A stretch of DNA of 64,000 nt from positions 18,591-82,590 of the forward strand of contig JALGSV010000002.1 of assembly GCA_029821755.1 (NCBI GenBank), written 5' to 3'. A program made the position numbers and the translations under genes. The DNA is from Candidatus Zipacnadum vermilionense. GTDB taxonomy: Bacteria; Armatimonadota; Zipacnadia; Zipacnadales; Zipacnadaceae. Below, one piece after another: positions 1 through 44,060 of the stretch (within the stretch, counting starts at the first letter, position 1; each line of letters begins with the position of its first letter). The notes below the pieces were generated by a model. The model did not search any database and had not been told where the DNA came from. It was given only the letters and a program-made list of their open reading frames with translations.

Positions 1-1780
1 GCAGTACATGACTAGCGGTCCGGAGATCGCCGCCTTCACCGTCTCCGCCAGCGGCCGGGACATGGAGTGGCTCGGACCGGACACGGATATCCCCGACACC
101 GCCGACTGGTTCCGCGCCGATGTCAACGGCTTCCGCCTGCGGCTCAAAGTCACCTCCGAGGTAGGCGTGGACCGGGTGCTGCTGTACGACGGCGAGCGCC
201 TGATCCGGCGATGGCTGCCCGGTGGGGAGAAGGTCTTCGAGATCGAGCTAGACCTGACCAACGCGCAGCAGTTCAACTACTGTGTGGAGGCTCACGACCT
301 GCAGGGCGGCATGGCCCTCACACCTGACTTCCACACCCAGCGCAACGATTGGGCCGAGTTCTTCTGCGCCGACCGCAACAACCAGCTCAACGTCGGCTAC
401 GAGAGGGCCGCAGACGGCACCGCCTTCGGCTGGTCCGGCACTATCTATCTGACCTACAACAACGGTAAGTGGGGCGGCTGTACTCCCACCACCGGCCGCT
501 TCTGGTTCCGCGACTCCCTGGCTCCGGTGCCCAACGACCCCGTCTATGACGAGATCGGCCCCTGGGACGGCGGCGTCAACACCCCCGGCGCCGCCTTCAA
601 CTTCAGCCTGGTCATGCCGGACCTCGACCCGCCCGAGTACGTCTTCATGACCACCCCGGGGCGGGAGCTCATCTCCACCGACATCGGCATCGGCCGCATG
701 ATCCTCCAGGACGGCTTCGACCTGTCCTGGCCCAACTTCGCCGGCGAGACTTACGTCGGCTGGAGTATGTTCCCCGTCTGTGAAACCCGCTACGTCCGCG
801 CCGAGCGCCTGGGTATGGTCTTCCGCCCCCGCCCGCGCTCGCTAGCCACGGTCATCTTCCAGTGGGACATCAGCCTCAAGCAGCCGGTCGAGTTCATCGA
901 ACCCCTCCAGGTCGGCTTCCTCGATGCCCTCGCTACCCACGTTCTGCACAAGGCGGACGGCTGCCGCGTGGAGATGGCTGGCGAGGGTGAGGACCCCCTC
1001 GACTTGACCTGGGAGCCCGGCGAGTACCTCATCTCCTGGACCCAGGGCCGCCGCCCGGCGATCTTCTTCAACGACAGCGTCCCCCTGCACCTGCGCCGAG
1101 CCCAGGCGGACTCCAGTGGCCCGCTGACCCTCGGGTGTGAGCCTGGCCAAATTGCCGCCTTCCTGGAGGGCGACTGTCTCCCCGCCCTGGACCATCCGGT
1201 CCGAATCAAGCTCCTCGGCATCGGCGGCGCCCACGATGACCGCGACCCGGAGATCGGCGAGATCGCCCTCCGCCAGATGGGTGTCCTGGGCGACCCCGCC
1301 TATCGCGTCGAGCTGGAATCCGGCGGCCTGCTCAGCACCCGCCTCCTTCTTACACTGGACGCACAAGGAACCGGCGTGGCCTGCCACATTCCGCAGGCCA
1401 ACTTGCTCATGGCAATACCGATCGCCGTGGAGAATCTCAACCCCAACTGGCCCACCGTCCTGGTGGACCGGGCGACCCGCCGCTGGCGCCCGCTGGGGAT
1501 GTTGGGGACCACCGCTTACGCCACCCTCGATACTCTCCCGCAGGACTGGAGCCTCTACCTGGGGCACCCCGTCACCGCTTCCGACCCCCAGGTGGTCCTG
1601 AGCCTGGCGCAGATCTCGCCGGAGGAGTGGGTCCTGGAGGCGCACAACCCGACGGACGAGGCGATGGACCTGAGGGTGCAACAGTCGCCGTACGCCGACC
1701 TGCTCAACTGGGAGGGCGCCGCCTGGAGGTTGGAGCCGGGGATGTCGAGGTTCGAGACGATCAGGGGGAAGGGTGACTGA
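1..1780 (+). CDS. 5'-partial secreted hypothetical protein, paralog of the C-terminal ~600 aa of the 40075..44004 protein
   Basis: ORF 8..1780 is open to the window start. It aligns with the C-terminal part of the 1309-aa protein at 40075..44004 (shared CADRNNQL, LIRRWLPGG/LIRRFLPGG, HNPTD motifs). The true gene probably extends upstream of the window. Confidence 0.6.
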   Translation, partial: QYMTSGPEIAAFTVSASGRDMEWLGPDTDIPDTADWFRADVNGFRLRLKVTSEVGVDRVLLYDGERLIRRWLPGGEKVFEIELDLTNAQQFNYCVEAHDLQGGMALTPDFHTQRNDWAEFFCADRNNQLNVGYERAADGTAFGWSGTIYLTYNNGKWGGCTPTTGRFWFRDSLAPVPNDPVYDEIGPWDGGVNTPGAAFNFSLVMPDLDPPEYVFMTTPGRELISTDIGIGRMILQDGFDLSWPNFAGETYVGWSMFPVCETRYVRAERLGMVFRPRPRSLATVIFQWDISLKQPVEFIEPLQVGFLDALATHVLHKADGCRVEMAGEGEDPLDLTWEPGEYLISWTQGRRPAIFFNDSVPLHLRRAQADSSGPLTLGCEPGQIAAFLEGDCLPALDHPVRIKLLGIGGAHDDRDPEIGEIALRQMGVLGDPAYRVELESGGLLSTRLLLTLDAQGTGVACHIPQANLLMAIPIAVENLNPNWPTVLVDRATRRWRPLGMLGTTAYATLDTLPQDWSLYLGHPVTASDPQVVLSLAQISPEEWVLEAHNPTDEAMDLRVQQSPYADLLNWEGAAWRLEPGMSRFETIRGKGD

Positions 1781-1832
1781 TCCCCACGTGGTCCGCCATG
1801 TACGACGGTCGCTCAGTGAGTGTCCCCTCCGT

Positions 1833-1857
1833 CCCCCTCTCCTGCAAGGAGAGGGGG
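1833..1857. terminator. perfect 10-bp stem hairpin (CCCCCTCTCC-TGCAA-GGAGAGGGGG) between convergent genes
   Basis: Inverted repeat read directly from the sequence. It lies between the stop of the 8..1780 gene and the stop of the minus-strand CHAD gene. No T-tract follows, as expected in a high-GC genome. Confidence 0.5.
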
Positions 1858-1924
1858 CAGGGGGTGAGGCTCCGCGGCTGGCGCGAGCAAGTCGCAGGCA
1901 TCGCGGCACTGGTGCGCGGCGACG

Positions 1925-2833
1925 CTAGTCCAATGCATCCAGTAGCGCGCTTCGCCAGGTCTCCTCGCCCAGGACGCCGATGGATTCGCGCGCGGTGACG
2001 TAGAGGGCCTCGCGGCGCTCCTGCAGGGCGCGGAGCGTCTCGCTGGTGCCCTTGAGCCGCCGGGCTTGCGCGTGGAAAAACTCCCTCAGTGCGGCGTCCA
2101 GCACGTCGCAGTCATGGGCCAGGCCCAGCGTCTCCTGGATCCCCGCCACGCTCTGGTACGGCCCGGCCAGCGCTGGCAGGGCCGAGAGCAAGGGCTCCAG
2201 CGTGTATTTGAGGCGCTTGACGACGATACGCAGGCGGTGCAGGGCAGCGGGATCGGCGGTCGCCTGCGCCTCGGCCAGGCGCTGGCCGGTGCGTTCCAGG
2301 CGGGCGTTGACGGCCAGATAGGCGAAGCGGTCTAGCGGCAGACCGCTCAACCGGCCTTTGTGTTTCCCCGTGTCCCGGGCTAGCCGCCGCAGGCGCGCCA
2401 CCAGCCGGTCCGGCCCGGCCAGCCGCTCCCACAGCTCGACCGTCGCCTCATGCGCCGTCAGCCGCTGCTCCTCCCAGGTCGCCACTGCCACCTCCAGGAC
2501 CGGTGCCGCCCCCGACACGGCCTCTGCCAGCTCCCGCGCATGCCCGATCAGCACGTCCCTGTCGCGCGCCCGCCCCAGACCGTCATTCAGATCCTCTACC
2601 CGCGGTAGTACCCGCCGCCGAGCCTTCACCGGCACCAGCCGCTGGAACAACCGTAGCGTTTCCCGTAGCCGCTTCACCGCTACCCGCAGATCATGCAGCC
2701 CCTCCACCTTCCCCGCGCACGCCGGTTTCACAGACGCCAGCACCTCGTCGGTCTTAGCATCTATCAGCTTACCCGCCGCTTTCCCGGCGCGGGTATTTGG
2801 CGTAAGTCCCTTGGGCAAAATAGGCTTGGGCAT
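1925..2833 (-). CDS. CHAD domain-containing protein
   Basis: Repeated CHAD-type helical motifs (LHDLRVAVKRLRETLRLF, LHRLRIVVKRLKYTLEPL). The ORF-track N-terminal extension (to 3028) is read-through of a palindromic repeat (RGAGFLARP translation). The real start is probably ATG at 2833 (MPKPILPKG). Confidence 0.7.
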   Translation of the reverse strand: MPKPILPKGLTPNTRAGKAAGKLIDAKTDEVLASVKPACAGKVEGLHDLRVAVKRLRETLRLFQRLVPVKARRRVLPRVEDLNDGLGRARDRDVLIGHARELAEAVSGAAPVLEVAVATWEEQRLTAHEATVELWERLAGPDRLVARLRRLARDTGKHKGRLSGLPLDRFAYLAVNARLERTGQRLAEAQATADPAALHRLRIVVKRLKYTLEPLLSALPALAGPYQSVAGIQETLGLAHDCDVLDAALREFFHAQARRLKGTSETLRALQERREALYVTARESIGVLGEETWRSALLDALD

Positions 2834-2856
2834 GGTGGTGTAGGGCAGGATCTCTT

Positions 2857-2934
2857 CCGCGTGGGGCGGGCTTTCTAGCCCGCGTTCCCCGCTGGTGTCC
2901 GTCCCCGGGCGGGCTAGAAAGCCCGCCCCACGCG
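2857..2934. repeat. REP-like palindromic repeat, type A pair (CCGCGTGGGGCGGGCTTTCTAGCCCGC ... GCGGGCTAGAAAGCCCGCCCCACGCG)
   Basis: Two inverted copies of the 26-nt unit separated by 27 nt. The same unit recurs at 31027, 33827 (degenerate), 60941 and 63435/63487. Confidence 0.8.
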
Positions 2935-2940
2935 CACGTG

Positions 2941-4326
2941 TCAGCACGTCACGTGCATAAACAGCGCCTTCGGCCCCTCGGCGGCATTGAAGGCTTCGGC
3001 GGCCTCCGGCGTCGGCAACAACTCCCATCGCACGCCCTGCGCGCGCAGGAAGGCCTCGGCGTCTTCGGTCAGGCGCACCATTTCCTGGAAGCCGGCCCCG
3101 ATGATCAGCAGGCTCGGGCCGCCCTTGATTACCTTCGCCAGTTCCTCCGGTCCCAGCACATGGGAGGTCCCGTAACGCCCGCGCGCCAGCTTCTTCTTCC
3201 GCGCTTTCAGCTTCCCCCCGGCTCGGATGTACAGGTCAGTCGCCAACTCCTTGCCGTTCACCACCGCGGCCCCGAAGCTGACGCTGTCCAGGTGCGGGTA
3301 GGTAGGAGCGGGATCCGCTTCGGCGGGGCAGCCTCCCTCCTCCGTCTGCGTCGGGCGGAATGGCTGCCCGCTGGTCTCGGCGTGGGCCAACGCCGCCGCG
3401 CCCAGGGCCACGGCATCGTCGCCCAGTTCCGAGAGCGCGAGGCGCAGCACATCCCGCGAACGCCGCAGGTGGTCGCCCCGTACCTCGGCCTCGATCAGTG
3501 GCATCAGAAAGTCGCCGCAAGCCTCCATCACACCCCCACCCAGGATGACCATATCCGGGTCCACTATATGCCGCAGGCTCACCACGCCCTGCCCCAGGTA
3601 ATGCCCCACGCGGGTCATAATCTCGGTAGTCAACTCATCGCCCGCGCCCAGGGCCTCCGCCAGCATGCCGCTGCCGACCCGCCCGGTTTCCGCGGCTTCC
3701 CGCAGAGACGACGTACGTCCAGCCGCCAAGCCTTCGCGCAGTTCCCGCTCAATGGCCGTACGACTGGCCAGGGCCTCGAAGCAGCCGGCATTCCCACATC
3801 CGCACCGTGGACCGTCGACGCTCACCACCATGTGCCCGATCTCACCCGCCTGGTCCTCAGACCCCGCCAACAACCGCCCGCCCAACACGACGCCGCCGCC
3901 GACGCCCGTGCCGACGAAGATACCCACCACATTCGCCACGCCCCGCCCAGCCCCCCGCCACACCTCCGCCAGCGTCCCCAGGTTCACATCATTACCCAGG
4001 AAGATCGGCACGGGGAAGCGTTCGGCCAGTTGGTCGCGCAGATGGGCATCGGCGTTAGACAGATTAGGCGCGTGCACCACCAGTCCCGCCCGGCTGTCCA
4101 CCACCGCCGGCACCGCCAGCCCCATGCCCGCCACCTCGCCGACGGTAGTGCCCGCCTTTGCCAGGACCTCACTCACCGCGGCCGCGATCTGGTCGCCCAG
4201 GGAGCCCTCTCGCGCGACCCTGAGCTTCTTGCGCCCCAGTATCTCGCCCTCCGCCGTCGCCACTACGGCCAGAATCTTAGTTCCACCCACGTCAACGCCC
4301 AGGTATAGGGACCGGTCTGCACTCAT
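2941..4326 (-). CDS. ROK-family sugar kinase (glucokinase / possible polyphosphate glucokinase) fused to a C-terminal Mth938-like (DUF498) domain
   Basis: N-terminus has LGVDVGGTKI and the ROK zinc motif CGCGNAGCFE. The C-terminal ~140 aa (SLLIIGAGFQEMVRL...EAAEAFNAAEGPKALFMHVTC) resembles the Mth938-like fold. GAGGTG lies 8 nt upstream of ATG 4326. Confidence 0.75.
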   Translation of the reverse strand: MSADRSLYLGVDVGGTKILAVVATAEGEILGRKKLRVAREGSLGDQIAAAVSEVLAKAGTTVGEVAGMGLAVPAVVDSRAGLVVHAPNLSNADAHLRDQLAERFPVPIFLGNDVNLGTLAEVWRGAGRGVANVVGIFVGTGVGGGVVLGGRLLAGSEDQAGEIGHMVVSVDGPRCGCGNAGCFEALASRTAIERELREGLAAGRTSSLREAAETGRVGSGMLAEALGAGDELTTEIMTRVGHYLGQGVVSLRHIVDPDMVILGGGVMEACGDFLMPLIEAEVRGDHLRRSRDVLRLALSELGDDAVALGAAALAHAETSGQPFRPTQTEEGGCPAEADPAPTYPHLDSVSFGAAVVNGKELATDLYIRAGGKLKARKKKLARGRYGTSHVLGPEELAKVIKGGPSLLIIGAGFQEMVRLTEDAEAFLRAQGVRWELLPTPEAAEAFNAAEGPKALFMHVTC

Positions 4327-4390
4327 CTGCTGCACCTCAAGTGCCGCCGGATCGGAAGGATTGCTGGCCTCTAGCGGCTAATGTAACGAC

Positions 4391-4954
4391 ATGGGAGACG
4401 ACACCGGCTTCGGGGCGATTCTGGGCCTGCTGGACCCCTCGGCGCCCCCCGAGGCTCACCGGGCGCTGCGCGAGGCCTACCTGTGGGCGCGAGAACTGTA
4501 CGGTGACCAACGGCGCCAGGACAGTTACTCCGTTCTCACTCACGCCTGCTCCGTCGCTGCGGACGTATCCCGCTTTGGGCACCGGGACCCGGAGATGCTG
4601 GCGAGTGCCCTCCTCCACGACGTTCTGGAGGTCACCCACGCCTCTCCCACCGAGATCGAGCGCCGTTTCGGCCCCCGCGTGCTGCGCCTGGTCGAAGCCC
4701 TCACCCATGGGCCCGGCGAGCCCACCGCGGTCTCAGCCCAACGCGCACTCGAAGCCGGCGAGGACGCCGTACTACTGCGCCTCTGTGATCGGCTCGACGG
4801 CCTCCGCCGTAGCCGCCTCCGCTCTCCCCTCTCCCGCTCCCGCTTCCTTGCCGCTACCCACGAAACTTACATCCCCCTGGCGGAGCAGCACTTCCCCGCC
4901 CTCGCCACCACGATGCGCCAAGCGCTCCGCGAAGTAGAGCAGACGCTGGAGTAG
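4391..4954 (+). CDS. HD-domain phosphohydrolase, RelA/SpoT hydrolase-like (small alarmone hydrolase-like)
   Basis: Motif ELYGDQRRQDSYSVLTHACSVA...LLHDVLEVT...EIERRFGPRVLRLVEALT resembles the (p)ppGpp hydrolase HD domain. Confidence 0.55.
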   Translation: MGDDTGFGAILGLLDPSAPPEAHRALREAYLWARELYGDQRRQDSYSVLTHACSVAADVSRFGHRDPEMLASALLHDVLEVTHASPTEIERRFGPRVLRLVEALTHGPGEPTAVSAQRALEAGEDAVLLRLCDRLDGLRRSRLRSPLSRSRFLAATHETYIPLAEQHFPALATTMRQALREVEQTLE

Positions 4955-5082
4955 AGCCACGTGCCTCCGATCACATGGCGGCCTACGCTACAGACACTCC
5001 CTTTCCCTATCCGGTTTCCTCTTGACCCCCCTCCCTATCAAGCGCGCGGAAGGTACGCAAGGGGGGCAGGGGAGGAGTCGCC

Positions 5083-5904
5083 TCAGCCATCCTCCAGCAG
5101 CGACGAGAAGAACTCCCGCAGCCTCTCCGTCGCCCCGCGCTTCTCCTCCTTCGGCTCCTCCGGAGTCTCCAGGATCCGCTCGGCGAACTCCGTGGTGATG
5201 ACTTGCCCCGGTATCATCCCCTGCACCACAGACTGGACGTGGCTCTGCAGATCGATGAATACCTCCCGGACGGTCCGGTTGGCGTCGACCACGGTGAAGT
5301 TGTACTCGTCCACCATGGTCTCGAACTCGCGCAACAGGCGTGCCTGGTAGGTCACGAAGCCCTCGTACATGTCGTCCAGACACAGGAAGTCCATCCCGGA
5401 TTCCCAGTAGTCAAATCCCCCACTGGCCAGGACGCGGGGAAGAAGCTTGTCCAGCGAGATCTTCAGGTACAGCACCAAGTCGGGCTTCAGGGCGAAGCCG
5501 TATAGCCGCCGCAGCCACGGCGCCTCCACGCCCCGCACCGCCGCTCGCGCTATCAGTGAGTAGGTGTAGCGGTCGGTCAGCACCACATACCCCGCGCGCA
5601 GGGCCGGGAAGATCTCGTTCTCCAGGCGGTTAGCGAAGTCGGTGGCGTAGAACAGGCACTGGGTGCGCCGCCCCATGGTGTGCCCGAGCTTCGCTTGCTG
5701 GATGTGCCGCCCGGCCAGGTTGCTCCGAGTCAGGCCCGTGTCGTAGACGGCCAGGCCGGAGCTCTCCAGCCAGTTGCGCAGTATCCGTGTCTGCGTGCTG
5801 CGACCCACCCCGTCGGTGCCCTCCAGGACGATCAGCTTGCCGGGTAGTTCCTCCTCGAGACCGGTCATGCCGGGGAGGGGAACCCAGTAGAACTCAGGGA
5901 TCAT
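5083..5904 (-). CDS. thymidylate kinase-like P-loop kinase (paralog 1)
   Basis: Walker A LIVLEGTDGVGRSTQ and a DRY(T)YS motif typical of dTMP kinases. 273 aa, longer than canonical Tmk. GGAGGTGA lies 8 nt upstream of ATG 5904. Confidence 0.6.
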   Translation of the reverse strand: MIPEFYWVPLPGMTGLEEELPGKLIVLEGTDGVGRSTQTRILRNWLESSGLAVYDTGLTRSNLAGRHIQQAKLGHTMGRRTQCLFYATDFANRLENEIFPALRAGYVVLTDRYTYSLIARAAVRGVEAPWLRRLYGFALKPDLVLYLKISLDKLLPRVLASGGFDYWESGMDFLCLDDMYEGFVTYQARLLREFETMVDEYNFTVVDANRTVREVFIDLQSHVQSVVQGMIPGQVITTEFAERILETPEEPKEEKRGATERLREFFSSLLEDG

Positions 5905-6714
5905 CTAACCCTCACCTCCCATCGGGAAGGCCGGTGCCCTGGCATCTGCCGGCTGGCGCAACAACCCTTCCAGGTGCGGCTTGACGATGTCGCGCATCTG
6001 CCGCTGCTGCTCGCCGATGGGCAGTGTGCCGTCGATGATGGTGAGGTCGAACTCCGTCGCCGCCTGGTCATACTGCTCCAGGATCCTCCCTTGAAACAGC
6101 GCGAAGCTCTCCTCCGGATCATCCGACAACCCCAGGTCCATCCCCGCCTCGTACCACTTCAACTCCGGCCGGCCCGAGAGAATGCGGTCTAGGGCCACCT
6201 CCAGCGGGACCCGGAAGTAGAACCCAACCGTAGGGCGCACGGCGAAGGAGTACACCTCCCGCACCCAAGCCGGGTCGCAACCGCGCGCCACGTCCCGTGC
6301 GAAGGCGGTGTAAACGTAGCGGTCCGCCAGCACCGCCGCCCCTGCCCGCAGTGGCGGCACGATGTTGCGCTCGGTCCGGTCCGCGAAGTCGGTGGCGTGG
6401 ATCAGGGAGAAGGTGAGAGGAGTGAGTAGCCGGCGCGATTTGCCACGCCGCGTGGTCCGCTTGACCAGCGGGGAGGAATTCCACTCCGAGAAAAATGTGC
6501 TGTAGCCTTGCGAAAGCAGCCACTTGTACAGCAGACTGATCTGTGTGCTCTTGCCCGACCCGTCAATACCCTCCACCACGAAGAGCCGACCGCGATAGTG
6601 CTCACTGGGTTGTGCCATCCCGACACCGCCGTTCTCGTAGTATAGGCTGTGACCTGTTGTAGGGCGGGGGCCGCCTCCCTCCCCGGTGGGGGCAGCATTA
6701 TAGTAGCCGCCCAT
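5905..6714 (-). CDS. thymidylate kinase-like P-loop kinase (paralog 2); alternative start ATG 6618
   Basis: Walker A LFVVEGIDGSGKSTQ and a DRYVYT motif. Its stop abuts the start of paralog 1 (0-nt gap). The long form carries a Gly-rich N-terminal extension. Confidence 0.6.
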   Translation of the reverse strand: MGGYYNAAPTGEGGGPRPTTGHSLYYENGGVGMAQPSEHYRGRLFVVEGIDGSGKSTQISLLYKWLLSQGYSTFFSEWNSSPLVKRTTRRGKSRRLLTPLTFSLIHATDFADRTERNIVPPLRAGAAVLADRYVYTAFARDVARGCDPAWVREVYSFAVRPTVGFYFRVPLEVALDRILSGRPELKWYEAGMDLGLSDDPEESFALFQGRILEQYDQAATEFDLTIIDGTLPIGEQQRQMRDIVKPHLEGLLRQPADARAPAFPMGGEG

Positions 6715-6758
6715 GACGATAGCAAGGCCTTCCTGCCCCGCCTGGAGAACATGCGCTC

Positions 6759-7706
6759 GTGAGACGCCCTTGTCCTGTCCCAGATCACTCTCCCGGCGCG
6801 CGCTACGTTGCTTTCGACGTGGGCAGCAATACCGTCCGCGCCCTTGCCGCCGCCTGGCAGCCTGGCGGCACCCTCCTGGTCACTCAGCAGGCCGGCCGCA
6901 TGACTGCGCTAGGGCGGGGGCTGTCGGCCACGCGGCGTTTACAGAAGGACACGATAGCCGACACCGCGGAGTTCGTCCGGGACTTTCTGGCCCAGGCCGG
7001 GCCTTTCCAGGAGGTTTTCTGCGCCGGGACGGCGGCGACCAGGGAGGCGCAAACCACCGGCGCGCTGGCGGCGGCCCTGCGCCGGCAGGGGGCGAAGCTG
7101 CAGGTGCTGACCGGCGAGGAGGAGGCGCGCCTGTCCTACCTGGGGGCACTCGCAGTTCTCGAGCTACCGACCGCCGTCCGGCCCCTGGTTGCCGACCTAG
7201 GCGGGCGCAGTATCGAACTGGCCCTGCGCCGGGGCAATCGCCTGCTAGGCCTCAGCTTGCCGCTTGGCGCTCGGGCCCTGACGGAGGCGTGCCTGCTCCA
7301 GGAAATCCCCTCCCGCTCCGAGATCGCCGCCGCACGTCGCGACGCCCATGCCGCCCTGGCCGCAGCCAACCGCCTCCTCGAGCAGGCAGGCCTGGTAGTT
7401 GCTACCGGCGGCACCGCCTTCGCCGCGGCTTTGCTGACCGGCCCGTGCTGGAGGCTTAGCGCCGATGCCCTCCAGCGGCTCCGCCGGCGGTTGTGCCGCC
7501 TCCCGCTCCCGGAGCGGCGTGAGGCAATGTCATTCGATCCGGAGCGCGCCGAGATTATCTGCGGGGGATTGATCGCGCTGGAGGTGCTGGCCGAGCGGGC
7601 GCCGGGCCGCCGCCTGACCCTCAGCCCCGGAGGCCTGCGAGAAGGTCTACTACTCGATCGCACCGGCGCACGGAGGGTGGCGTTCGCGGAGGGGATGCGA
7701 ATCTAA
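6759..7706 (+). CDS. Ppx/GppA family phosphatase (exopolyphosphatase / pppGpp phosphohydrolase)
   Basis: N-terminal YVAFDVGSNTVRAL and the overall Ppx/GppA actin-like fold pattern. GTG start in the ORF track. Confidence 0.7.
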   Translation: MRRPCPVPDHSPGARYVAFDVGSNTVRALAAAWQPGGTLLVTQQAGRMTALGRGLSATRRLQKDTIADTAEFVRDFLAQAGPFQEVFCAGTAATREAQTTGALAAALRRQGAKLQVLTGEEEARLSYLGALAVLELPTAVRPLVADLGGRSIELALRRGNRLLGLSLPLGARALTEACLLQEIPSRSEIAAARRDAHAALAAANRLLEQAGLVVATGGTAFAAALLTGPCWRLSADALQRLRRRLCRLPLPERREAMSFDPERAEIICGGLIALEVLAERAPGRRLTLSPGGLREGLLLDRTGARRVAFAEGMRI

Positions 7707-7719
7707 GCCCGGCGAGTCT

Positions 7720-9726
7720 TCAGAACACCGTCGCCAGCCCCACCAACTCCAGGCTGATCCGCCCGGTCTGTCGCGACCAAGACAGCCCCACCTCCCGGTC
7801 CTGGTAGACCTTCCGCCCTACGAAGAGCGACTGGTCCGAGTAGGACGACTCGTTCTGCCGATACCAGTTGCCCATCAACTCCACGCGCCACAGGGACGAC
7901 AGGTAGTAGTCCCAGGTCACCAGGCTGTACCAGTCTGAACTATCCAAATAGTCCTCCACGGTGCCGTACACCATCCATTTCCGGCCGTGGTAGGCTCGTA
8001 GTTCCGTCGAGATAACCTGCTGCCACCCCCCCCCCGCCATATTTCCGCTCAGGTGACTGGCGCTGTACCGCAGGTTCAGGTCCAGCGCCTCGCCGAACGA
8101 CCGTTTCAGTCGCACTTCCCCGCGCAGGTTGTTCCCGTGGAAGGGTGAGGTGTCCCAGGTGAAAACGTTGCTCAGGGAGGGAGTCAGGCGGGTGTTCCGG
8201 TCGAGCCGGATCGGCCGCCAGTCCATCGACCCGTACAGCTCCTGCACAAACTGCGGGTTGGTATTATTCAGGCCCGCACCTCTCTGCACCCCCGCCGACA
8301 CCCCTATCCGGTAGTACGGGCTCTGCACGGTCTTGCCAAACGGGCGCGGATCACTCAACCACTCCCCCACCGCTCCCCACGAGCTACCCAGGCCAGTCGG
8401 TTTCTGGTAGAAGCTGCGTAGGTTGACGCTGTACCCCGGACGGGAGTCGTACACCGACCCGTCATAGTACAAGCTCCTGTGGTCCGGCGAGGCCACGTTG
8501 AAGAAGGCGTTCGCTCCTCCCCAGATCGTCCGGCTGTCCCGCCACTGCGCCCCCCACTCGGACCTCGGCAGCCCGGACAGCGAAAGCACCCCGCTGGTCT
8601 GGCCTACCCGGTACTCATGTTGCAGCCCCAAACCCCACTCATCCGAGCCCATGATGCTGGTCGCCGGCGCCCCCTTCTGTAGGGCGACGGAGCTAGTCGT
8701 GTTCTCGCCGGCACTCAGGAAGTACGGGTAGTTGACCGCCAGGCCGCCACTGGAGCTAATCCCTAAGACCTGCGTGTTGGAGGCCCCCGTGTAGCCGGGA
8801 AGGGCGAAGATCCAGATCCGCGGCAGCGACATCAGCTTCTTCTCTTCGGTGTACAGCCCTCCCTCGCGGAATACCATCTTCTCGTTGCTGAAGACAGTGA
8901 CACGCTTGGCGATAATCCAGGTGGCGCTGGCGTCATCCTCCCGCTGGAAGGCGTCCTCAGGGATCTCCCAGTCCATGGCTCGCGCCTCGAGGGTGGCCAG
9001 ATCGAAGGTGACGCGTTCCACTCCCTCGCCACCCAAACGCCGCAGCACTCCTCGCTGGCGCTGCAGGTCCAGATAGAAATCCACCCCCTCCAACTCCACC
9101 TTGCCATCGGTCAGCACCCCCGGCCCGCCTCGCAGGATCATCTCTGCCACGTTCAGTTGCAGCAGATCGGCGCCTTCCAGCCGGATGCCGCCCATTCGCG
9201 CCCAGGCCTGGTCCCGCGTCTCTACCACCCCCTGGTCCACCGCGTACCCCGTCCAGCCTCCGCCCAGGTGCACGATATGCGTGTCGGCGAGGGAGGTCTC
9301 TCCGGGCCGGAGGAACACCACCGCGCCCTGTAGCCGAGAGTTCAAGGCGGTAACCGTGATGATGGCGGTGCCCGGCGCGTCGCTGACCAGGAAGGCGTTC
9401 ACTACGCCCCCGCGCGAGACCAGGTTGATAGTGGCCTCCCGATCGGCTCCGGTCGTAGTAAAGTAGCCGAAGTCAGTGTGCAAGACCACCGCCAGACCAT
9501 CGACGACGTAGCTGCCGTCGTCATTGCGCAGGTCCACGCGCAAGCGGGCGCGCGTCTTGCCGTCGGACGGCACGCGGTTCGGGGTAGCGCTCATGGAGAG
9601 GAAGACGCGGCCCATCAGGGCGCTCTGCGCACGGACCGGAAGAGGAACCGCCGCGCCGCCGGCACACAGCAGTAATCCGGCGGCGAGGCGCAGTAGGAGG
9701 ATTCCCGGCTTACGGATAGGGTTCAT
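7720..9726 (-). CDS. outer-membrane beta-barrel protein with N-terminal Ig-like domain, possibly LptD/OstA-like
   Basis: Signal peptide. N-terminal Big-1-like Ig segment. Long Gly/Ser/Tyr-rich beta-strand region ending in a terminal Phe (LELVGLATVF), the outer-membrane-protein signature. Confidence 0.4.
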   Translation of the reverse strand: MNPIRKPGILLLRLAAGLLLCAGGAAVPLPVRAQSALMGRVFLSMSATPNRVPSDGKTRARLRVDLRNDDGSYVVDGLAVVLHTDFGYFTTTGADREATINLVSRGGVVNAFLVSDAPGTAIITVTALNSRLQGAVVFLRPGETSLADTHIVHLGGGWTGYAVDQGVVETRDQAWARMGGIRLEGADLLQLNVAEMILRGGPGVLTDGKVELEGVDFYLDLQRQRGVLRRLGGEGVERVTFDLATLEARAMDWEIPEDAFQREDDASATWIIAKRVTVFSNEKMVFREGGLYTEEKKLMSLPRIWIFALPGYTGASNTQVLGISSSGGLAVNYPYFLSAGENTTSSVALQKGAPATSIMGSDEWGLGLQHEYRVGQTSGVLSLSGLPRSEWGAQWRDSRTIWGGANAFFNVASPDHRSLYYDGSVYDSRPGYSVNLRSFYQKPTGLGSSWGAVGEWLSDPRPFGKTVQSPYYRIGVSAGVQRGAGLNNTNPQFVQELYGSMDWRPIRLDRNTRLTPSLSNVFTWDTSPFHGNNLRGEVRLKRSFGEALDLNLRYSASHLSGNMAGGGWQQVISTELRAYHGRKWMVYGTVEDYLDSSDWYSLVTWDYYLSSLWRVELMGNWYRQNESSYSDQSLFVGRKVYQDREVGLSWSRQTGRISLELVGLATVF

Positions 9727-9735
9727 ACGGCGACT

Positions 9736-9765
9736 GGCCGGCCCGACAACTTCGCCGGGCCGGCC
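9736..9765. terminator. intercistronic hairpin GGCCGGCCCG-N10-CGGGCCGGCC
   Basis: Perfect 10-bp inverted repeat between the FN3 membrane-protein gene and the barrel gene on the minus strand. Confidence 0.4.
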
Positions 9766-9778
9766 GAGGAGTCGGCGG

Positions 9779-10840
9779 TTAGGACGAGGCAGGTGGGAAG
9801 ATGATCTGCGTGAAGTTCGCGTAGGCGCTGACTGCCTGGGTGGTATAGACCGCCGCGATGCGGTAGCGATACCGTTCCCCAGAGGTCACGTTGTTGTCGA
9901 AGAAGCTGGTCGCGCCCGGCCCGACCAGCCCTCCGTCGATGAACTGGTAGGGCTGTCCATTCACGGAGCGTTGGATCTGATAGCGAAGCAAGGTCAGGTC
10001 CCCTACCTGTGGCGCCCGCCAGGTCAACTGAATGCCGCCCGTCTGTACCACCAGGGATACCGGGACCGGAGGCAAGGCCCCCTGCGGAGCCCTGTTATCG
10101 CTCTTGGCGCCGCTGATCACGAGAGCGAGCAGGCCGACGACCAGAACCGCGGCAATCCAAGAGGTATTGCGCTTGCGCGAGGGCGCTTTCGGCGCCGTCG
10201 CCTCTTCTCCGGCGATGGCCCGCGCCACCTGCCCCACGGCCTCCCGGACCGCCTCCTTAATGAGCGGCTGGTCGGAGCCGGCGTACTGCGTCACCAGCCG
10301 CGATTCCCCTACTACCTTGAAGGTCCGCTCCGAGGTCGGCGTAGCCGAGGCCTCGCCAGTCTGCGTGTTGAAGTTGGCCCCCACGGCGTACAGCTCCCCG
10401 GCCAGGCTGATCTTCGCTTGCTTGGGATACTCGGTGATGACCAGGATCTCTACAGTGACTTGCAGGACGGCGTCAGCCCCCAGCGCGTGCCCGATCACCA
10501 CGGCTGCCGAGGGGCTCGGCGGGGCAGTCTCCACCTGCGCGGGCAACACCCGACCCTCCGATATGGCGCGGCGCACTAGCGGGGAAGTAGCACTGAAATC
10601 TAGCCCGGCCAAGCCCTGCTTGCCGGTGATGCCCAGGACCAGGTCGTCCGAGATCCACCTGGACAGCCGCGCGTCGCCCCGGCCGCTGTGATCGGATACC
10701 GGCAGCACCAGTATCTTACGCGGCCCCTCCTCCTGCGCCCGCACCGGCCCGGCTGCAACCGGTACCAGCGTGGCGATGAACGCTGCCATCAGTAGCCAAT
10801 ATAGGGTGCGGCACAGCCTGCTTCTTAGAATTACGGTCAT
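9779..10840 (-). CDS. single-pass membrane protein: periplasmic LpoB/TolB-N/CsgG-like N-domain, TM helix, C-terminal fibronectin type III domain
   Basis: Signal peptide, ILVLPVSDHSG...LGADAVLQVTVE pattern, TM helix WIAAVLVVGLLALVI, FN3-like tail. Paralog of the 18784..20670 gene. Confidence 0.5.
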   Translation of the reverse strand: MTVILRSRLCRTLYWLLMAAFIATLVPVAAGPVRAQEEGPRKILVLPVSDHSGRGDARLSRWISDDLVLGITGKQGLAGLDFSATSPLVRRAISEGRVLPAQVETAPPSPSAAVVIGHALGADAVLQVTVEILVITEYPKQAKISLAGELYAVGANFNTQTGEASATPTSERTFKVVGESRLVTQYAGSDQPLIKEAVREAVGQVARAIAGEEATAPKAPSRKRNTSWIAAVLVVGLLALVISGAKSDNRAPQGALPPVPVSLVVQTGGIQLTWRAPQVGDLTLLRYQIQRSVNGQPYQFIDGGLVGPGATSFFDNNVTSGERYRYRIAAVYTTQAVSAYANFTQIIFPPASS

Positions 10841-11193
10841 TGCTTCCGGCCCCCTTGATTCGATGAGGTCAAGTTGTTGTGACCACCGGAATGCGCCGAT
10901 GGCCGCGCCAGGACTCGCATCTGCTCACCGCGGCAGGGGCCTTACCCCGGTGCCGCTGGTGCTGTCTCGCAGGGCCCGCCCCTGCGTCAGGGGCACGTTA
11001 CTGCGCCCCTCCCTCGACCGGTCCCGGACTCCCCCGGGATCAGCCTTTCCACTTGCCCAGTCGCCCGCAACCTCCCCTCCCCACCGTCCGGGCGATGTGC
11101 CGCGCGACGGCCCCCTCCTCCTCAGCGAGCGGGAACGAGCGCGGCCGCTAGTGCCGACTGCGGCCTGCGCACGGGCCCAGATACGAGCCTCGC

Positions 11194-14064
11194 TTACCGC
11201 GTCACCTCGAAGCTGGTGACCAAGCTGTTGGCCTGGCCGCTCTCCGGAGAGCGCGCAGTGATCTGGCACAGGTAGCGCCCGGACGGCACCCGGGTCCCGC
11301 TATCGCTCCGGGCGTTCCATAGTACGGTGTTGACCCCTGCGGTCCCCACCTGCCCGATGCTCACGCGGCGGATGACCACGCCGGCGATGTTACGGATCAC
11401 GACGTCCACACTCGCCGACGACGCCAGCGCATAAGTGAGAGCGAGTTGCCCCCCCGGCGCGGCCTGCGCTTGGACGCTCGTAAGCAAAGCGGCCGCCGAT
11501 CCCCGCGGCTGCGCCACTATCTTGAACAGCCGGCTTCCCTCTTCCATCATCTGGAAGGAATACGCCGCCGTTGTGCGCATGTAGCACCGCGTGCCACTGG
11601 CCACATCCTCCAGGATCAGCGTGTACTTCTCCGGCACCGCCGACAGGTCCGGCCAGGCCACGGCCAGATTGCGCTGGGCGCCGGCGGAGGTAACCTGCAG
11701 GTACCAGGTCTTCTCATTGCCGTCGTCGGCCTTAAGGTCCACCATGCGCTGCTCTCCGCCGCCTCCGGCGGAGACGAAGGCCGCCTGCAGACCCGTGCCG
11801 AAGGGCGAGGGCGGTGCGAGCAGATCCCGAGCATCCGCCCCATCCTTGGCCTCGCGTGCCACCCCGAAGGCCCGCACCATCGTCGCCGCACCTCCACCGC
11901 TGACGGTGATCCCCGCCCGCCAGCCGTTGGCCGCTGGGCTCACCTGGGCTATCGGAGCCGCGCTTACGCCCACCGCACTGGGCGGCGGCACCAGCAACTC
12001 GGTATCGTCATACGCCAAGATCCAGTAGCCCACGAACGGGTCCAGCCGTACCTTGGCTAACTGCTCCTCCCACCCATACTGCCTCGTCATCGGGTCGTAA
12101 TCAAACACCGTAGGCTGCAGCAGCGCCCGGCCGATCGCCTCCGCCATGGTCAACTGCCCACTGTCGGAGCTGATCACCTGCATGTCCCGCAGGTAAACTG
12201 GCAGGATGAACGGGTTCCCGATCTGATTCCAGCCCTTGGTCAGCGAGATGCTGACCGACGTGAGGCTCGGCACCGGCTGGGCGTCCGCCGGCAGCACGAT
12301 CTGCTGCTGCGCCCGGTTTAGTAGCCAGTACCCCTTCCCCACCGCCACGTTGGTCACAAAGGGGTTGGGGAACCAGCGATAGATGAGCGACAGCGGGTCC
12401 CAGCGAATCAGCGCTCCGAGTTGTCCCGGCTGCAACCCGCCCAGGCTCTGGAAAACGTGTTCCGCGTCGCTGTTGGTGAACTCGTAGGGGATGGAGATCA
12501 TCTCCAGCCCGTCGGGTGAAGGCCGCGGATTGATCACTGGGACCGAGGGTATGGTGATGGTCCGGTCCACCGCGCGCCCCCGGGGTCCGGTCAAACCCAC
12601 CGTCACTACTCCCGGCCGCGCCCCGCTGGCGCTGACATTCCAGACTGCCCCCACGAACCCGTCCCGCGGGATCGCCCCGAAGGCCTGGGTTTGCGGCTGC
12701 GTATCCGGTGACAGGGTCAACCCCTCCGGCAGCCTGATGCTCGCGCTGGTCCCCGCCAGGGCGGATGCGCCGAAGTTGTCCACGAAAATCCCCATCGGGA
12801 AGGGCGAGCGCCCCTGCCCGTCGGCCAGGTAGCAGCTCTCGACGATGTCCGGAGTCGAGGGATCGTCTCCGGCGGCTTCCTGCAGGCGCTGCGGGCCGTA
12901 GCCCATCGTCGCGAAAGTCGGCTCGTAGTTGGCCGTCGAGGCCCCAAAGGCAAGGTATGTCACGTACCGTCGCGAAGCGCCCGCCGGAAGGTTGAGCTCA
13001 TTCCACTTGACTCCCACACCCCAGTCCTGCCCCACGATAGACAGCGCCGGGTTCGGGACGAAGTCGAAGTTCGCACCCGCCAGACGCGCCCACATCCCAA
13101 TCTCCACTGCATCCGGCACCCCCGCCGAGGACCCGGCCGTGTTCCGCTGGCGTACCTCCGGCGCATCGAGTACACCTTTTACCGAGATCAGCGGGTTAGT
13201 GGGATCGTCGTACGCCACCCAACCGGTCGGCATCACCCCGGCGCCCCCCGACAGCACGCGCTCGTTGCGGATAGTCGTCCCGTCCGGCAGTATGACCGAC
13301 GTCCCGTCGCGTACGCCGGCCCCGCCGAAGCCGGTGTCGAACCCCCAGCGCACCCCTACACTATGTGGCTCGGCGGTGGTGTTGGTCACGATAAGCTCGA
13401 GCATCAGCGCGTCGCCCACCAGCTCGTAATTGTGGTAGACAGTCAACGAGTCGTCTATCGGGACTTGAAGCGGCACCACCGGCGGCTCCACCGGCGGCTC
13501 CACCGGCGGCTCCAGCGGGTCGTCTATGTCACCTGTGTCGTCTCCGCCTTGATCGGTAAGCGGCACAAGCGAAGTTCCCCTCGCTGCGCGGGTGGTGGCG
13601 GTCAGCGGCACCGGCCAGTAGCTGGGCAGCGTACCGGGATCGGCGGCCGTCTCTGCCTCGTTCATGGCCGCGTACGTATCGAACAGTAGCGCCTCGCCAT
13701 CTTCTACCGTAGCATCCACGGAGAACTGCAAGAAGGAGGTGAAGCCGGTAAAGTCGTTCGTATCGTTGAACGCCTTGCTGGCGATAGCCACGTCCTCATC
13801 GCCGGTCCGAGTGGGGTCGCCCCCCCGGGGGGCGAGCCGTCCCGTCAGCAATTGGAACCGGCCCGCCGGCCGAACCCAGAAGTCAGTCCCCACGGACACC
13901 ACTTGCGGTGCGCCGATCTGCATCCGCATTAGTCCGCCGGGCTGGGAGATGTCCAGCATCGACTGGGCCGCGGCCGGGCCCGACAGCGCCACTGCCGCGA
14001 AAGTGCAGACCAGGGCCATCACACCTGCGATGAGCATCTTCTTCGATATAAGGCTACAGTGCAC
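11194..14064 (-). CDS. giant secreted protein (956 aa) with shared C-terminal modules and FlgD-Ig/T9SS-like C-terminal domain
   Basis: Signal peptide, Pro-rich linker (PVEPPVEPPV). A C-terminal ~450-aa region is shared with the 14098 and 20934 gene products, including module A (SIPYEF...RW.P..Y..P...GYWL) and the CTD ...RNIAGVVIRRV...WNARSDSGTRVPSGRYLCQITAR. Confidence 0.6.
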   Translation of the reverse strand: MHCSLISKKMLIAGVMALVCTFAAVALSGPAAAQSMLDISQPGGLMRMQIGAPQVVSVGTDFWVRPAGRFQLLTGRLAPRGGDPTRTGDEDVAIASKAFNDTNDFTGFTSFLQFSVDATVEDGEALLFDTYAAMNEAETAADPGTLPSYWPVPLTATTRAARGTSLVPLTDQGGDDTGDIDDPLEPPVEPPVEPPVVPLQVPIDDSLTVYHNYELVGDALMLELIVTNTTAEPHSVGVRWGFDTGFGGAGVRDGTSVILPDGTTIRNERVLSGGAGVMPTGWVAYDDPTNPLISVKGVLDAPEVRQRNTAGSSAGVPDAVEIGMWARLAGANFDFVPNPALSIVGQDWGVGVKWNELNLPAGASRRYVTYLAFGASTANYEPTFATMGYGPQRLQEAAGDDPSTPDIVESCYLADGQGRSPFPMGIFVDNFGASALAGTSASIRLPEGLTLSPDTQPQTQAFGAIPRDGFVGAVWNVSASGARPGVVTVGLTGPRGRAVDRTITIPSVPVINPRPSPDGLEMISIPYEFTNSDAEHVFQSLGGLQPGQLGALIRWDPLSLIYRWFPNPFVTNVAVGKGYWLLNRAQQQIVLPADAQPVPSLTSVSISLTKGWNQIGNPFILPVYLRDMQVISSDSGQLTMAEAIGRALLQPTVFDYDPMTRQYGWEEQLAKVRLDPFVGYWILAYDDTELLVPPPSAVGVSAAPIAQVSPAANGWRAGITVSGGGAATMVRAFGVAREAKDGADARDLLAPPSPFGTGLQAAFVSAGGGGEQRMVDLKADDGNEKTWYLQVTSAGAQRNLAVAWPDLSAVPEKYTLILEDVASGTRCYMRTTAAYSFQMMEEGSRLFKIVAQPRGSAAALLTSVQAQAAPGGQLALTYALASSASVDVVIRNIAGVVIRRVSIGQVGTAGVNTVLWNARSDSGTRVPSGRYLCQITARSPESGQANSLVTSFEVTR

Positions 14065-14097
14065 TGATCGCTCTCTCCTCTCGCCGGCTTCCCTGGA

Positions 14098-17000: not shown

Positions 17001-17424
17001 CGGAGCTCCCCTGCGAGGCGTGCATCCCGGCGAGAGGCAGCCGAGGCCCCACCACCGGCGTCGGAAGGGTAACGCAGGCCACTCCGGGCAGCGCTGCCAG
17101 TGCCTGTAGCTTGCCGCCGGCGATCTGCCCTTGCACCCGCTGCGCCGTCTCAAATTGTATCTGCAGGCCAGCCAGCGACAGGCTGGCCAGCGAGGCTGGC
17201 TGCCTCTGGTCCAGCCACACCTCCACCACTACCGGACGTCCTGCCCAGACAGCGGACATGGCATACGGCTGCAGCACTCCGCTGAGCGATCCGGCAACGG
17301 CCGGTGCCCCCATCAGCGCCCCCGGCCCCACTGCCAGCAAGAGAGCGGATGACATCATAACGATACTCGGCCTCAGGTGACTCGTCGCTTGCTTATCGGA
17401 CTTCACCTCGCAGACCTCCCTCAT
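14098..17424 (-). CDS. giant secreted protein (1108 aa) with subtilisin-like (S8) domain and shared C-terminal modules plus FlgD-Ig-like CTD; alternative start 17358
   Basis: STSASAAHVAGAAALLYSENP closely matches the S8 Ser-region GTSMAAPHVAGAAAL. The Asp and His motifs were not clearly found, so it is possibly degenerate. The C-terminal region is paralogous to 11194 and 20934. Confidence 0.55.
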   Translation of the reverse strand: MREVCEVKSDKQATSHLRPSIVMMSSALLLAVGPGALMGAPAVAGSLSGVLQPYAMSAVWAGRPVVVEVWLDQRQPASLASLSLAGLQIQFETAQRVQGQIAGGKLQALAALPGVACVTLPTPVVGPRLPLAGMHASQGSSVRPQQAIFGFGANVSEGVQLTNASSYQSLGIAGAGANIGIIAEGFAGAVDAEIPTPAQVSFRADGTMGTDALGTAAAEVAADMAPQANFILIAVDTALSLRQAINYVATNRYTAVVNTVGTVDGPFDGSDMISQAVATASDSGVLWVQASGDLAQRHWQGTFVDVNSDTFCDIETNTGVSLDLPAGEFTAFLSWYETAGAVTSQDYNLQLWQGTTLIADSGVSQNGATPPRETLIAQVITAGVHELRIKAVRADLMQPDKFQLYTPAANLPVSVAVAATSLPIPAMSSRALTVGATAGTAGVPPAPGIDDIELYSGQGPTVGGSRKPNMVGPDRVTTSLAAYTPFLSTSASAAHVAGAAALLYSENPSRTGADLRRIILMLAKPLPTDTSPPSNTYGEGRLTLQAGRDTDLPTVTIIFPQNSTTINTRTPLIRASLIDTGTGIDPASILLAIDGRQLTGYSFDATSGVLTFQVTTSLTLASHQLTLSVADQDGNRSVTALSNFRVALPRMDAGIHLFSLPYTYAPGSFPDPSQVFGLSSEEVRLARWWPGDTQYHLYPDPYATFDPPDASGPAQVVPQPPAGIGYFVRLPRATTLNITGAPVAGLTQYDINLLMGSREPRGWNMIGCPFLTPVDFGSVQFVTAGKRETLAEAISSGVTDGVLFGFRSTASGGYYTFSADPFSAMLEPFQGYWLRVRKDTTLVIYAPVIATQTATPRPTEGGEGWRLQLVATANGVVEPCNYIGMNTKATAAYSPFWAVGKPPAVDSSLRAALVERDWGDESAYYAQIVRPASGRQEWDMEIACAQPNSEVSLRWPELNATVPAGVTLLLEDLDTGEEIYMRTSAGYSFNSGPQGSTRRVRIIASTEAVGGLSLSGVSAQGITGGGVAFTYALSQPAEVTAEIRNISGLLIKQFSPQLTAGGAVELLVWNGRSDRGSKVPAGRYVVRLTARTDKGQTVQAIRPFEVFP

Positions 17425-17508
17425 GGCCGCCTTCGGGCGGTCCCTTGCTTCGTATTCTGCTGCTACACGTACTTGCTCCGCCCCCGATCCGTCCCAACCC
17501 CGAGTTCC

Positions 17509-18699: not shown

Positions 18700-18783
18700 T
18701 GCTGCTGCTCGCTTATCAACCGGCCCTCCCGATCTCGACTTACCGGTCGGAACTCTCCCGGCGCCAACCTGTGCCCGCCACCG

Positions 18784-20670: not shown

Positions 20671-20933
20671 TGCCTTGGATCTCCCTCCCGGCGGGACCGT
20701 TGCAGAATCTCGGCGCTTTCGCGCCTGCGCTCGGGACCGGGCTTATGCCCGGACCCCGGCGCTTCCCCCGTTGCCGGAGGAAAACGTGAACGTGCGTCCT
20801 CTCCACGGGCCCAGGCGCTTCTCTCCACCCCCGGCTGCCAGCCCTGCCCCGTGGACCCCTCCACACAACGCTCGTCAGTATAACACAGCCCTCGGGGCGG
20901 CTGCAACGACTCCTTCGGCGCGGCGCGCCCTGT

Positions 20934-44004: not shown

Positions 44005-44060
44005 CCGTCTCCCCACACCCCTCGGGAGAGCAGTGCTCCCCCGGAGGGGCCGCGTCGAGT

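Follow-up and report, generated by a model that had tools for sequence, protein, structure and literature searches.

A thymidylate kinase-like gene pair of an Armatimonadota-like bacterium as a probable heteromeric polyphosphate kinase of the PPK3 family

Two adjacent thymidylate kinase-like genes, here called A and B, lie in a stretch of 64,000 nucleotides (nt) from contig JALGSV010000002.1 of the bacterium Candidatus Zipacnadum vermilionense, the whole of which is referred to below as the window. Together they very probably encode a bacterial (Armatimonadota-like) member of PPK3, a heteromeric polyphosphate kinase assembled from two thymidylate kinase (Tmk) paralogues. The family is already known, having been described between 2024 and 2026, and the locus adds another bacterial member to it. 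The heteromeric and reversible polyphosphate kinase of Sulfolobus acidocaldarius, SaPPK3, is encoded by two genes that carry a thymidylate kinase annotation (PMC12995831; JBC 2026; preprint 10.1101/2024.08.28.610084). The catalytic subunit of this enzyme, cPPK3 (Saci_2019), has no thymidine monophosphate (dTMP) kinase activity, such activity being found in Saci_0893, and the partner subunit, rPPK3 (Saci_2020), is inactive alone, raises activity approximately 10-fold and joins the catalytic subunit in an alpha2-beta2 complex (PMC12995831). The equilibrium of SaPPK3 favours the formation of ATP from polyphosphate (polyP) at a low ATP/ADP ratio. The placement of A and B in this family, as catalytic (c) and partner (r) subunits respectively, draws on their sequences, clade membership, signature residues, synteny, natural fusions among their homologues and purifying selection, all of which were observed in this analysis. 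The pair and its junction comprise the following features.

5905..6618, minus strand: gene A, cPPK3-like catalytic subunit, 237 amino acids (aa) counted from M33 of a raw open reading frame (ORF) of 269 aa at 6714..5905

5083..5904, minus strand: gene B, rPPK3-like partner subunit, 273 aa

5902..5907, minus strand: stop/start junction TAGATG, in which the TAG of A (5907..5905) directly adjoins the ATG of B (5904..5902)

5912..5920, minus strand: Shine-Dalgarno-like GGGAGGTGA for B, within the 3' end of A

The two genes are co-directional, with A upstream of B, and their products match the Pfam family Thymidylate_kin with 66.5 and 72.4 bits, respectively. They are paralogues of one another, sharing 34% identity across 221 aa (E 2e-46), and each has a P-loop, or Walker A motif (GIDGSGKST in A, GTDGVGRST in B), and a DRY motif (ADRYVYT in A, TDRYTYS in B). 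An earlier, sequence-only reading of this DNA had described a tandem of Tmk-like paralogues with these motifs, a stop codon abutting the next start, a ribosome-binding site embedded in the upstream gene (GGGAGGTGA, at 5920..5912) and an Arg in place of the P-loop Lys of one copy; each of these observations was borne out, the Arg belonging to B. What that reading missed was the identity of the pair, which is placed in the PPK3 family by its neighbourhood and by the 52% identity of A to Saci_2019. The abutting stop and start codons suggest translational coupling of B to A. In two relatives, the loci L086 and L082, the equivalent junction is TGATG and a sequence of the GGAGG/GGGGG type is kept at the position of the Shine-Dalgarno element of B.

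The similarity to SaPPK3 is strongest for A, whose match to Saci_2019 scores 207 bits, and extends to B, which is 28% identical to Saci_2020 (86 bits, E 7e-25). Both proteins have as their best match in the PDB, by far, the protein st1543 (STK_15430) of Sulfurisphaera tokodaii (entries 2plr, 4nzy, 4rzx and 5h70), with E 3.6e-56 and approximately 48% identity to 2plr for A and E 3.4e-38 for B, true Tmks following at about 1e-12 to 1e-14. It is the best match in fold as well as in sequence. Although deposited as a dTMP kinase, st1543 has been re-read as a cPPK3 homologue, and dTMP-binding residues are not conserved in PPK3 (PMC12995831); it was crystallised as a single subunit, with no partner, and has no terminal tails. 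The organisation of the two loci is also alike, as in both of them adjacent Tmk-fold paralogues, c followed by r, lie beside ppx and CHAD genes. The operon for SaPPK3 holds ppx, SixA and CHAD (PMC12995831) and was recovered here as locus L088, where His_Phos_1 and Ppx-GppA are followed by Tmk-like genes of 213 and then 210 aa and finally by a 206-aa gene, that is, SixA-Ppx-c-r-CHAD. The locus in the window differs in having no SixA gene in its PPK3 neighbourhood, a divergent rather than co-directional ppx, and additional ROK/DUF498 and HD_4 genes. The hosts differ too, S. acidocaldarius being a thermoacidophilic archaeon and the window's host a bacterium of moderate-temperature metagenomes.

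A scan of one genome per species gave at least 572 loci with a c-like protein, and 80 of these (23 archaeal and 57 bacterial or unassigned) were kept. In a neighbour-joining tree of 82 c and 78 r sequences, with the E. coli Tmk as the single canonical outgroup, the c sequences, all 82 of them and with A, 2plr and the c subunits of Metallosphaera in their number, are split from r and the E. coli Tmk with 90.5% bootstrap support. Thus, in the comparison with bona fide Tmk that the sequence-only reading had proposed as a check, A falls in the c clade apart from the one canonical enzyme included. The alignment columns that distinguish the two subunits among these sequences are as follows.

P-loop Lys: in c, K in 82/82; in r, R in 72/78 and K in 6/78

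Glu of the EWNSS loop: in c, E in 82/82; in r, G in 72/78

Trp of the EWNSS loop: in c, W in 82/82; in r, L in 55/78 (also W, M or I)

His of LIHATDF: in c, H in 82/82; in r, Y in 78/78

Basic-patch Lys: in c, K in 82/82; in r, K in 57/78

Lid Arg: in c, R in 80/82; in r, mostly non-basic

Lid Lys: in c, K in 76/82; in r, D in 63/78

Gene A encodes the c signature with every c-invariant residue. In the numbering of the 237-aa protein these key residues are K23 of the P-loop (codon 6552..6550), E45-W46-N47-S48-S49, the basic patch R57 R58 G59 K60 S61 R62 R63, H74, D99-R100-Y101, and R150 and K154 of the lid; the two positions after the basic-patch Lys are mostly Lys or Arg in c. B has the r signature, with Gly-Leu for Glu-Trp, Tyr for His and a lid Asp for Lys, and is without both the basic patch and the basic lid residues found in c. 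Its P-loop reads G29-T-D-G-V-G-R35-S-T (Arg codon 5802..5800) and D111-R112-Y113 is present. The r signature occurs also in Saci_2020 and in Metallosphaera r, and Saci_2020 shares with B a Gly plus a hydrophobic residue for Glu-Trp, Tyr for His, and the loss of lid and basic-patch residues. At the level of sequence, these patterns point to a positively charged cleft, presumably for polyP, that is conserved in c and lost in r, B included.

The same comparisons bear on the annotation under which such proteins usually appear. Homologues of A and B carry a dTMP kinase label in public records, as do the PDB titles of st1543, and both proteins match Pfam Thymidylate_kin; on this basis the pair could be read as genuine kinases of dTMP, or of other (deoxy)nucleoside monophosphates, arising either from a duplicated housekeeping tmk or as a specialised nucleotide kinase pair. 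However, the curated cut-off of the dTMP kinase equivalog TIGR00041 is 83.25 bits, and A (69.5 bits) and B (81.9 bits) both fall under it. The dTMP site of E. coli Tmk is taken here to involve the REPGG loop, F74 (the stacking Phe), R78 (the Arg to thymine O4), T105, Y108 and Q109. In the alignment with this enzyme (L081), A has EWNSS and B has TGLTRS where E. coli Tmk has its REPGGT loop. At F74 the two proteins have His and Tyr, respectively, R78 corresponds to Phe, and neither protein keeps T105, Y108 or Q109. Canonical Tmks, such as E. coli Tmk (b1098) and those of T. thermophilus (5x7j) and A. aeolicus (2pbr), do share with A and B the P-loop kinase fold, Walker A, a DR[YH] motif and a lid, but they are much weaker matches than st1543, and A and B differ from them in the replacement of the REPGG loop and of the residues that contact thymine and deoxyribose, and in a lid insertion of approximately 11 residues, seen in both proteins relative to E. 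coli Tmk. Tmk is moreover a homodimer, whereas A and B, if correctly assigned to PPK3, would form a heteromeric pair. Furthermore, Saci_2019, to which A is so similar, has no dTMP kinase activity whilst Saci_0893 has it, and the conserved Ppx/CHAD context suits polyP metabolism. On this evidence neither A nor B is a canonical dTMP kinase, and the reading of the pair as nucleotide kinases is highly improbable.

A particular form of that alternative, in which one copy would be the housekeeping tmk and the other a decayed pseudogene, was rejected, since both copies fall below the TIGR00041 cut-off and both are under purifying selection. The ratio of nonsynonymous to synonymous substitution rates (dN/dS) is 0.04 for A and 0.13 for B against L086, and 0.09 and 0.23 against L082. 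These values rule out decay and fit a faster-evolving, non-catalytic partner; the description of the pair in the sequence-only reading as non-canonical, rather than as a housekeeping gene with a decayed copy, accordingly stands. A search of all ORFs of the window with phmmer found no third Tmk-like ORF.

A and B are likewise distinct from the PPK2 family. Neither matches Pfam PPK2 (PF03976), Thymidylate_kin alone being reported at E <= 0.01. In their general way of working, the two-domain class II PPK2 enzymes (P. aeruginosa PA3455) offer a parallel, as they too combine an inactive P-loop kinase module with an active one. In class II PPK2 the inactive module serves both oligomerisation and activation, phosphorylation of nucleotides from polyP is the favoured direction, and the nucleotide site and the polyP site have exchanged places relative to PPK3 (PMC12995831). 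The PPK2 modules, however, are fused and belong to a different family, whereas A and B are separate genes, even though natural c-r fusions occur elsewhere. The name PPK3 is itself ambiguous, as biocatalysis papers also apply the label to another enzyme, which we take to be of the PPK2 family.

The tandem arrangement seen in the window is general among the loci surveyed. A second Tmk-like gene lies directly downstream of c, on the same strand, in 77 of the 80 loci. Measured from the c stop to the r start, the spacing in these 77 is -4 for 23 loci and falls between -1 and +4 for a further 22, so that the abutting junction of A and B represents the family norm. A homologue of Ppx lies within 7 kb (<=7 kb) in 54/80 loci, CHAD in 26/80 and ROK directly after r in 7/80, by single-sequence phmmer. 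Natural c-r fusions were also found (P0006, P0017, P0038, P0151, P0153 and P0240), and two proteins, P0254 and P0262, carry a C-terminal Ppx-GppA domain III/HD in addition to the c-r fusion. The fusion P0240 (WP_258112839.1) comes from the cultured Alicyclobacillus sp. SP_1, which could serve as a tractable model. In view of the translational coupling, the tandem occurrence in 77/80 loci and the natural fusions, A and B are likely to work together. An exception to the rule of c plus r in each PPK3 operon is provided by L011 and L014, on two contigs of one metagenome-assembled genome of Thermoproteota, in which Ppx precedes a c-like gene and no r-like gene follows; the next gene of L014 is on the opposite strand.

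The distribution of these loci is broad. Archaeal loci come from Metallosphaera, Nitrososphaerales/Nitrosopumilales and Thermoplasmata, and bacterial loci from Acidobacteriota, Verrucomicrobiota, Sumerlaeota, Gemmatimonadota, Melainabacteria, Chloroflexota, Planctomycetota, Thermodesulfobacteriota, Dormibacterota and others, the close homologues of A and B being labelled Armatimonadota or WS1. The founding paper gives the bacterial occurrence of PPK3 as few bacteria (PMC12995831), whereas the loci with a c-like protein counted here, together with the 344 representatives of 50%-identity clusters that an exhaustive phmmer search matched at E <= 1e-30, suggest that the family is much more widely distributed in bacteria than published. 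Domains resembling c also occur within larger proteins, P0294 (EukProt, Ancoracysta twista), the metagenomic P0334, P0347 and P0356, and P0320, where they have a WN[ST]S loop, a Lys-rich patch, DRY or DRW, and a YYEAGLD lid with an acidic insert. The architectures comprise SPX + c-like + DUF2252/APH-like in a protist, MFS transporter + c-like + DUF2252/APH-like, and c-like + DUF2252. The SPX and MFS proteins might couple a polyP kinase to phosphate sensing or transport.

The sequence-only reading had given both proteins as approximately 270 aa long with N-terminal extensions, one of them Gly-rich, and this proved true of B and not of A. All 273 aa of B are kept in its homologues. Relative to a Tmk of 210 aa, B has approximately 20 further residues at the N-terminus, which are conserved, and a C-terminal tail of about 45. 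Saci_2020, by comparison, is 210 aa long. An AlphaFold2 model of B, with a mean predicted local distance difference test score (pLDDT) of 86 and a predicted template modelling score (pTM) of 0.81, has the N-terminal residues packing on the core with confidence and the C-terminal tail at low confidence. The nearest fold to this model is st1543, with a template modelling (TM) score of 0.93 and a root-mean-square deviation (rmsd) of 1.6-1.7 A, canonical Tmks coming next with TM of about 0.8. The natural c-r fusion P0017, from a related organism, was modelled with a deep alignment for its r half only, and gave two good Tmk domains (pLDDT 86.7, pTM 0.52), the nearest structures to which are likewise those of st1543; over both models TM is 0.88-0.93 and rmsd 1.6-2.1 A.

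For A, the Gly-rich extension is, by comparison with its homologues, an artefact of ORF calling, and the real gene is most likely 6618..5905. A length of 232-241 aa is found in 111 of the 120 best homologues; of the other nine, four are fused or duplicated (306-440 aa) and five are outliers in length (212-278 aa). The commonest N-termini, of the form MAQPSEHY, match residue M33 of the ORF. Gene calls for c in relatives give 237-238 aa. The in-frame sequence 5' of M33 is not conserved among relatives, is interrupted by stop codons in L082, and overlaps a promoter-like element. On these grounds together the start of A was set at 6618, with two elements upstream of it.

6697..6725, minus strand: promoter-like TTGCTA-17 nt-TATAAT, 78 nt upstream of ATG 6618, overlapping the spurious ATG 6714

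6624..6630, minus strand: Shine-Dalgarno-like GGCGGTG, 5 nt before ATG 6618

The first of these is the sole sigma70-like match in 1700..8000, where 0.4 would be expected by chance, and is a match to the consensus only. In L086 and L082, TATAAT is likewise found with a -35-like TTGC/TTGT element, 65-73 nt ahead of the start of c (65-78 nt with the site of the window included), and the same GGCGGTG is present in L086.

Several points weigh against the assignment of the pair to PPK3, or of B to r. B obtains a higher raw score with Saci_2019 (134 bits) than with Saci_2020 (86 bits), and in the neighbour-joining tree, with its single outgroup, the monophyly of r received a bootstrap value of 12%. 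The assignment of B to r therefore leans on its gene position, or synteny, and its shared signature residues. Loss of the arginine of the DRX motif, the published hallmark to which the inactivity of rPPK3 has been attributed (PMC12995831), does not apply to B, which keeps the DRY Arg. Conversely, Saci_2020 retains the P-loop Lys (EGIMSSGKTT) that B has lost, so that the evidence for an inactive B is indirect. The model of the fusion P0017, with its pTM of 0.52, did not predict the relative orientation of c and r with confidence. Finally, in the family pattern a canonical dTMP kinase is encoded elsewhere in the genome and PPK1 and PPK2 are usually absent; the view of such genes here is that of the 64-kb window, in which no separate canonical tmk, ppk1 or ppk2 was found. 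Pfam scanning of 30 ORFs of the window found no PPK1 or PPK2, four large ORFs (20934..25892, 39688..44004, 44111..47392 and 48518..52102) having been left out of that scan.

The hallmark of r differs between lineages. In Sulfolobales the DRX Arg is lost from every r (D[GS]Y in 39/39), and approximately 24 of these 39 have Arg in the P-loop. Across the wider survey, the DRY Arg is kept in 77 of 78 r sequences, including B, and the P-loop Lys is replaced by Arg in 72 of the 78, the downstream partners of several phyla; among close homologues the P-loop Arg is found in 106/119. The Arg in the P-loop of B is thus fixed in the family rather than peculiar to this gene, and the loss of the DRX Arg appears to be a feature of Sulfolobales r and not of the family as a whole. 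The inactivity of B is accordingly proposed from general knowledge of Lys-to-Arg changes in Walker A and from the missing basic cleft, and not by transfer from Saci_2020. The six exceptions that retain the Lys are loci of the Gastranaerophilales type (L018, L030, L047, L064, L071 and L074), whose downstream copy has the P-loop GTDGSGKST, shows part of the c signature (EWK) and is a better-scoring match to A than to B. In such pairs both subunits may be active, or the duplication may have been independent.

An alternative account of B retains the PPK3 assignment and makes the subunit either a sensor acting allosterically or a second site of weak activity, binding a ligand such as ATP/ADP or the end of a polyP chain; regulation of the bacterial enzyme would then differ from that of the Sulfolobus one. 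The strict conservation of the P-loop, DRY and lid of B may reflect ligand binding. The P-loop Arg is fixed in those 72 r sequences across bacteria, Nitrososphaerales and Thermoplasmata, with the second copy retaining Lys in the six Gastranaerophilales loci; the Asp of DRY is found in 78/78 and its Arg and Tyr in 77/78 each, and Arg is conserved at two more columns (77/78 and 78/78). The dN/dS of r is 0.13-0.23, and the only r subunits to lose the DRX Arg are those of Sulfolobales, which lie on a long branch. In P-loop NTPases generally, Lys-to-Arg mutants of Walker A often bind nucleotide yet lose turnover. Nevertheless, B is missing the residues of the basic cleft by which c would take up polyP, and conservation of residues could equally stem from constraints of fold or interface. 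Saci_2020, furthermore, is inactive alone (PMC12995831). This account of B is therefore regarded as possible but rather doubtful. Similarly tentative is the broader proposal that outside Sulfolobales r is a ligand-binding pseudokinase that senses adenylate charge or the polyP end, and that PPK3 is a widespread bacterial polyP kinase rather than a crenarchaeal curiosity.

Under the preferred reading of the pair as a PPK3, enzyme activity and stoichiometry are inferred from homology to SaPPK3. A would bind ATP or ADP at its intact P-loop (GSGKST), the Arg of DRY acting as a phosphate clamp, and the dTMP pocket would give way to a basic cleft, to which the EWNSS loop, the RRGKSRR patch and the Arg and Lys of the lid all contribute and which would take the end of the polyP chain. 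The reaction catalysed would be ATP + polyP(n) <-> ADP + polyP(n+1). B, with no basic cleft and with Arg for the P-loop Lys, would be a non-catalytic or regulatory partner which, by analogy, joins c in an alpha2-beta2 complex and raises its activity. The abutting stop and start, together with the internal ribosome-binding site, would result in approximately 1:1 synthesis of A and B.

The genes that flank the pair on either side are consistent with a role in polyP metabolism.

6759..7706, plus strand: short exopolyphosphatase of the Ppx/GppA family, 315 aa, divergent from A (Pfam Ppx-GppA, E 1.7e-32)

4391..4954, plus strand: HD_4 protein, a hydrolase domain of RelA/SpoT type only, convergent with B (Pfam HD_4, E 6.8e-17; partial match to TIGR00691)

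2941..4335, minus strand: ROK-family sugar kinase fused to DUF498 (Pfam ROK, E 4e-64; below the NCBIfam ROK glucokinase cut-off)

1925..2833, minus strand: CHAD protein, of a family associated with polyP granules (Pfam CHAD, E 2.7e-32; ORF up to 3028)

The gene order Ppx / c-r / (HD_4) / ROK-DUF498 / CHAD is common to the window, L082 and the closest relative (L086/L087). As an ORF, the CHAD gene (1925..3028, minus strand) shares 88 nt with the 3' end of the ROK gene; the calls for CHAD in relatives are of 303 aa, and the start is probably M66, at about 2833, which would give a protein of approximately 302 aa. The ROK-DUF498 protein is put forward as a candidate polyP-using glucokinase, by inference only. 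In the spacer of 136 nt between B and the HD_4 gene, a pattern scan found no terminator, and the spacer folds no better than shuffled sequence (z -0.63). Scans of the window for Rfam families and tRNA genes gave no matches.

Two of these neighbours allow the pair to be viewed as a kinase in the metabolism of guanosine (penta)tetraphosphate, or (p)ppGpp, or of another alarmone. The Ppx/GppA family includes pppGpp phosphohydrolases, the flanking HD_4 protein is a (p)ppGpp hydrolase domain, and SaPPK3 has reduced activity with GDP (PMC12995831). The HD_4 gene, however, lies between r and ROK in the window and at the same place in the closest relative only, being absent from the other 80 loci, and the best NCBIfam match of the Ppx/GppA protein is the exopolyphosphatase model TIGR03706 (151.8 bits, below its 307-bit cut-off), whilst CHAD is specific to polyP metabolism. 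An alarmone kinase is consequently considered quite unlikely; it is possible, within the PPK3 reading, that the stand-alone HD_4 protein represents a link between alarmone and polyP metabolism.

A role in anti-phage defence or as part of a mobile element, to which B's weak match to the PADLOC candidate family PDC-M51B (40 bits) and the presence of a c-like domain in one polyvalent protein (P0296) might point, is extremely improbable. The PADLOC match is a generic one for the Tmk fold; in different phyla, the pair shows vertical conservation and keeps its synteny with polyP genes; and in the window GC content is uniform with no mobile-element genes nearby. A defence module was rejected as a candidate, the PADLOC match being single, weak and generic.

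Elsewhere in the window, the minus strand of 7720..25892 carries a run of large genes, several of them without a Pfam match (668, 353, 628 and 1652 aa), that is syntenic in L086 and also encodes proteins that combine FlgD_ig with subtilase S8 domains and a C11 clostripain-like peptidase. A further region, 39688..52102, holds three very large ORFs of 1438, 1093 and 1194 aa.

Recognition of the pair as a PPK3 corrects an annotation as dTMP kinase and gives Armatimonadota-like bacteria a candidate polyphosphate kinase, and the survey suggests that the distribution of the family is wider than the 'few bacteria' of the founding paper. In most lineages the hallmark of r is the change of the P-loop Lys to Arg with an intact DRY motif, and not the DRX loss of the characterised enzyme, an observation that matters both for understanding regulation in the family and for choosing a member for biochemistry or for ATP-regeneration biocatalysis. 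If B and its counterparts were indeed sensors, r would allow PPK3 to sense adenylate charge or the end of the polyP chain.

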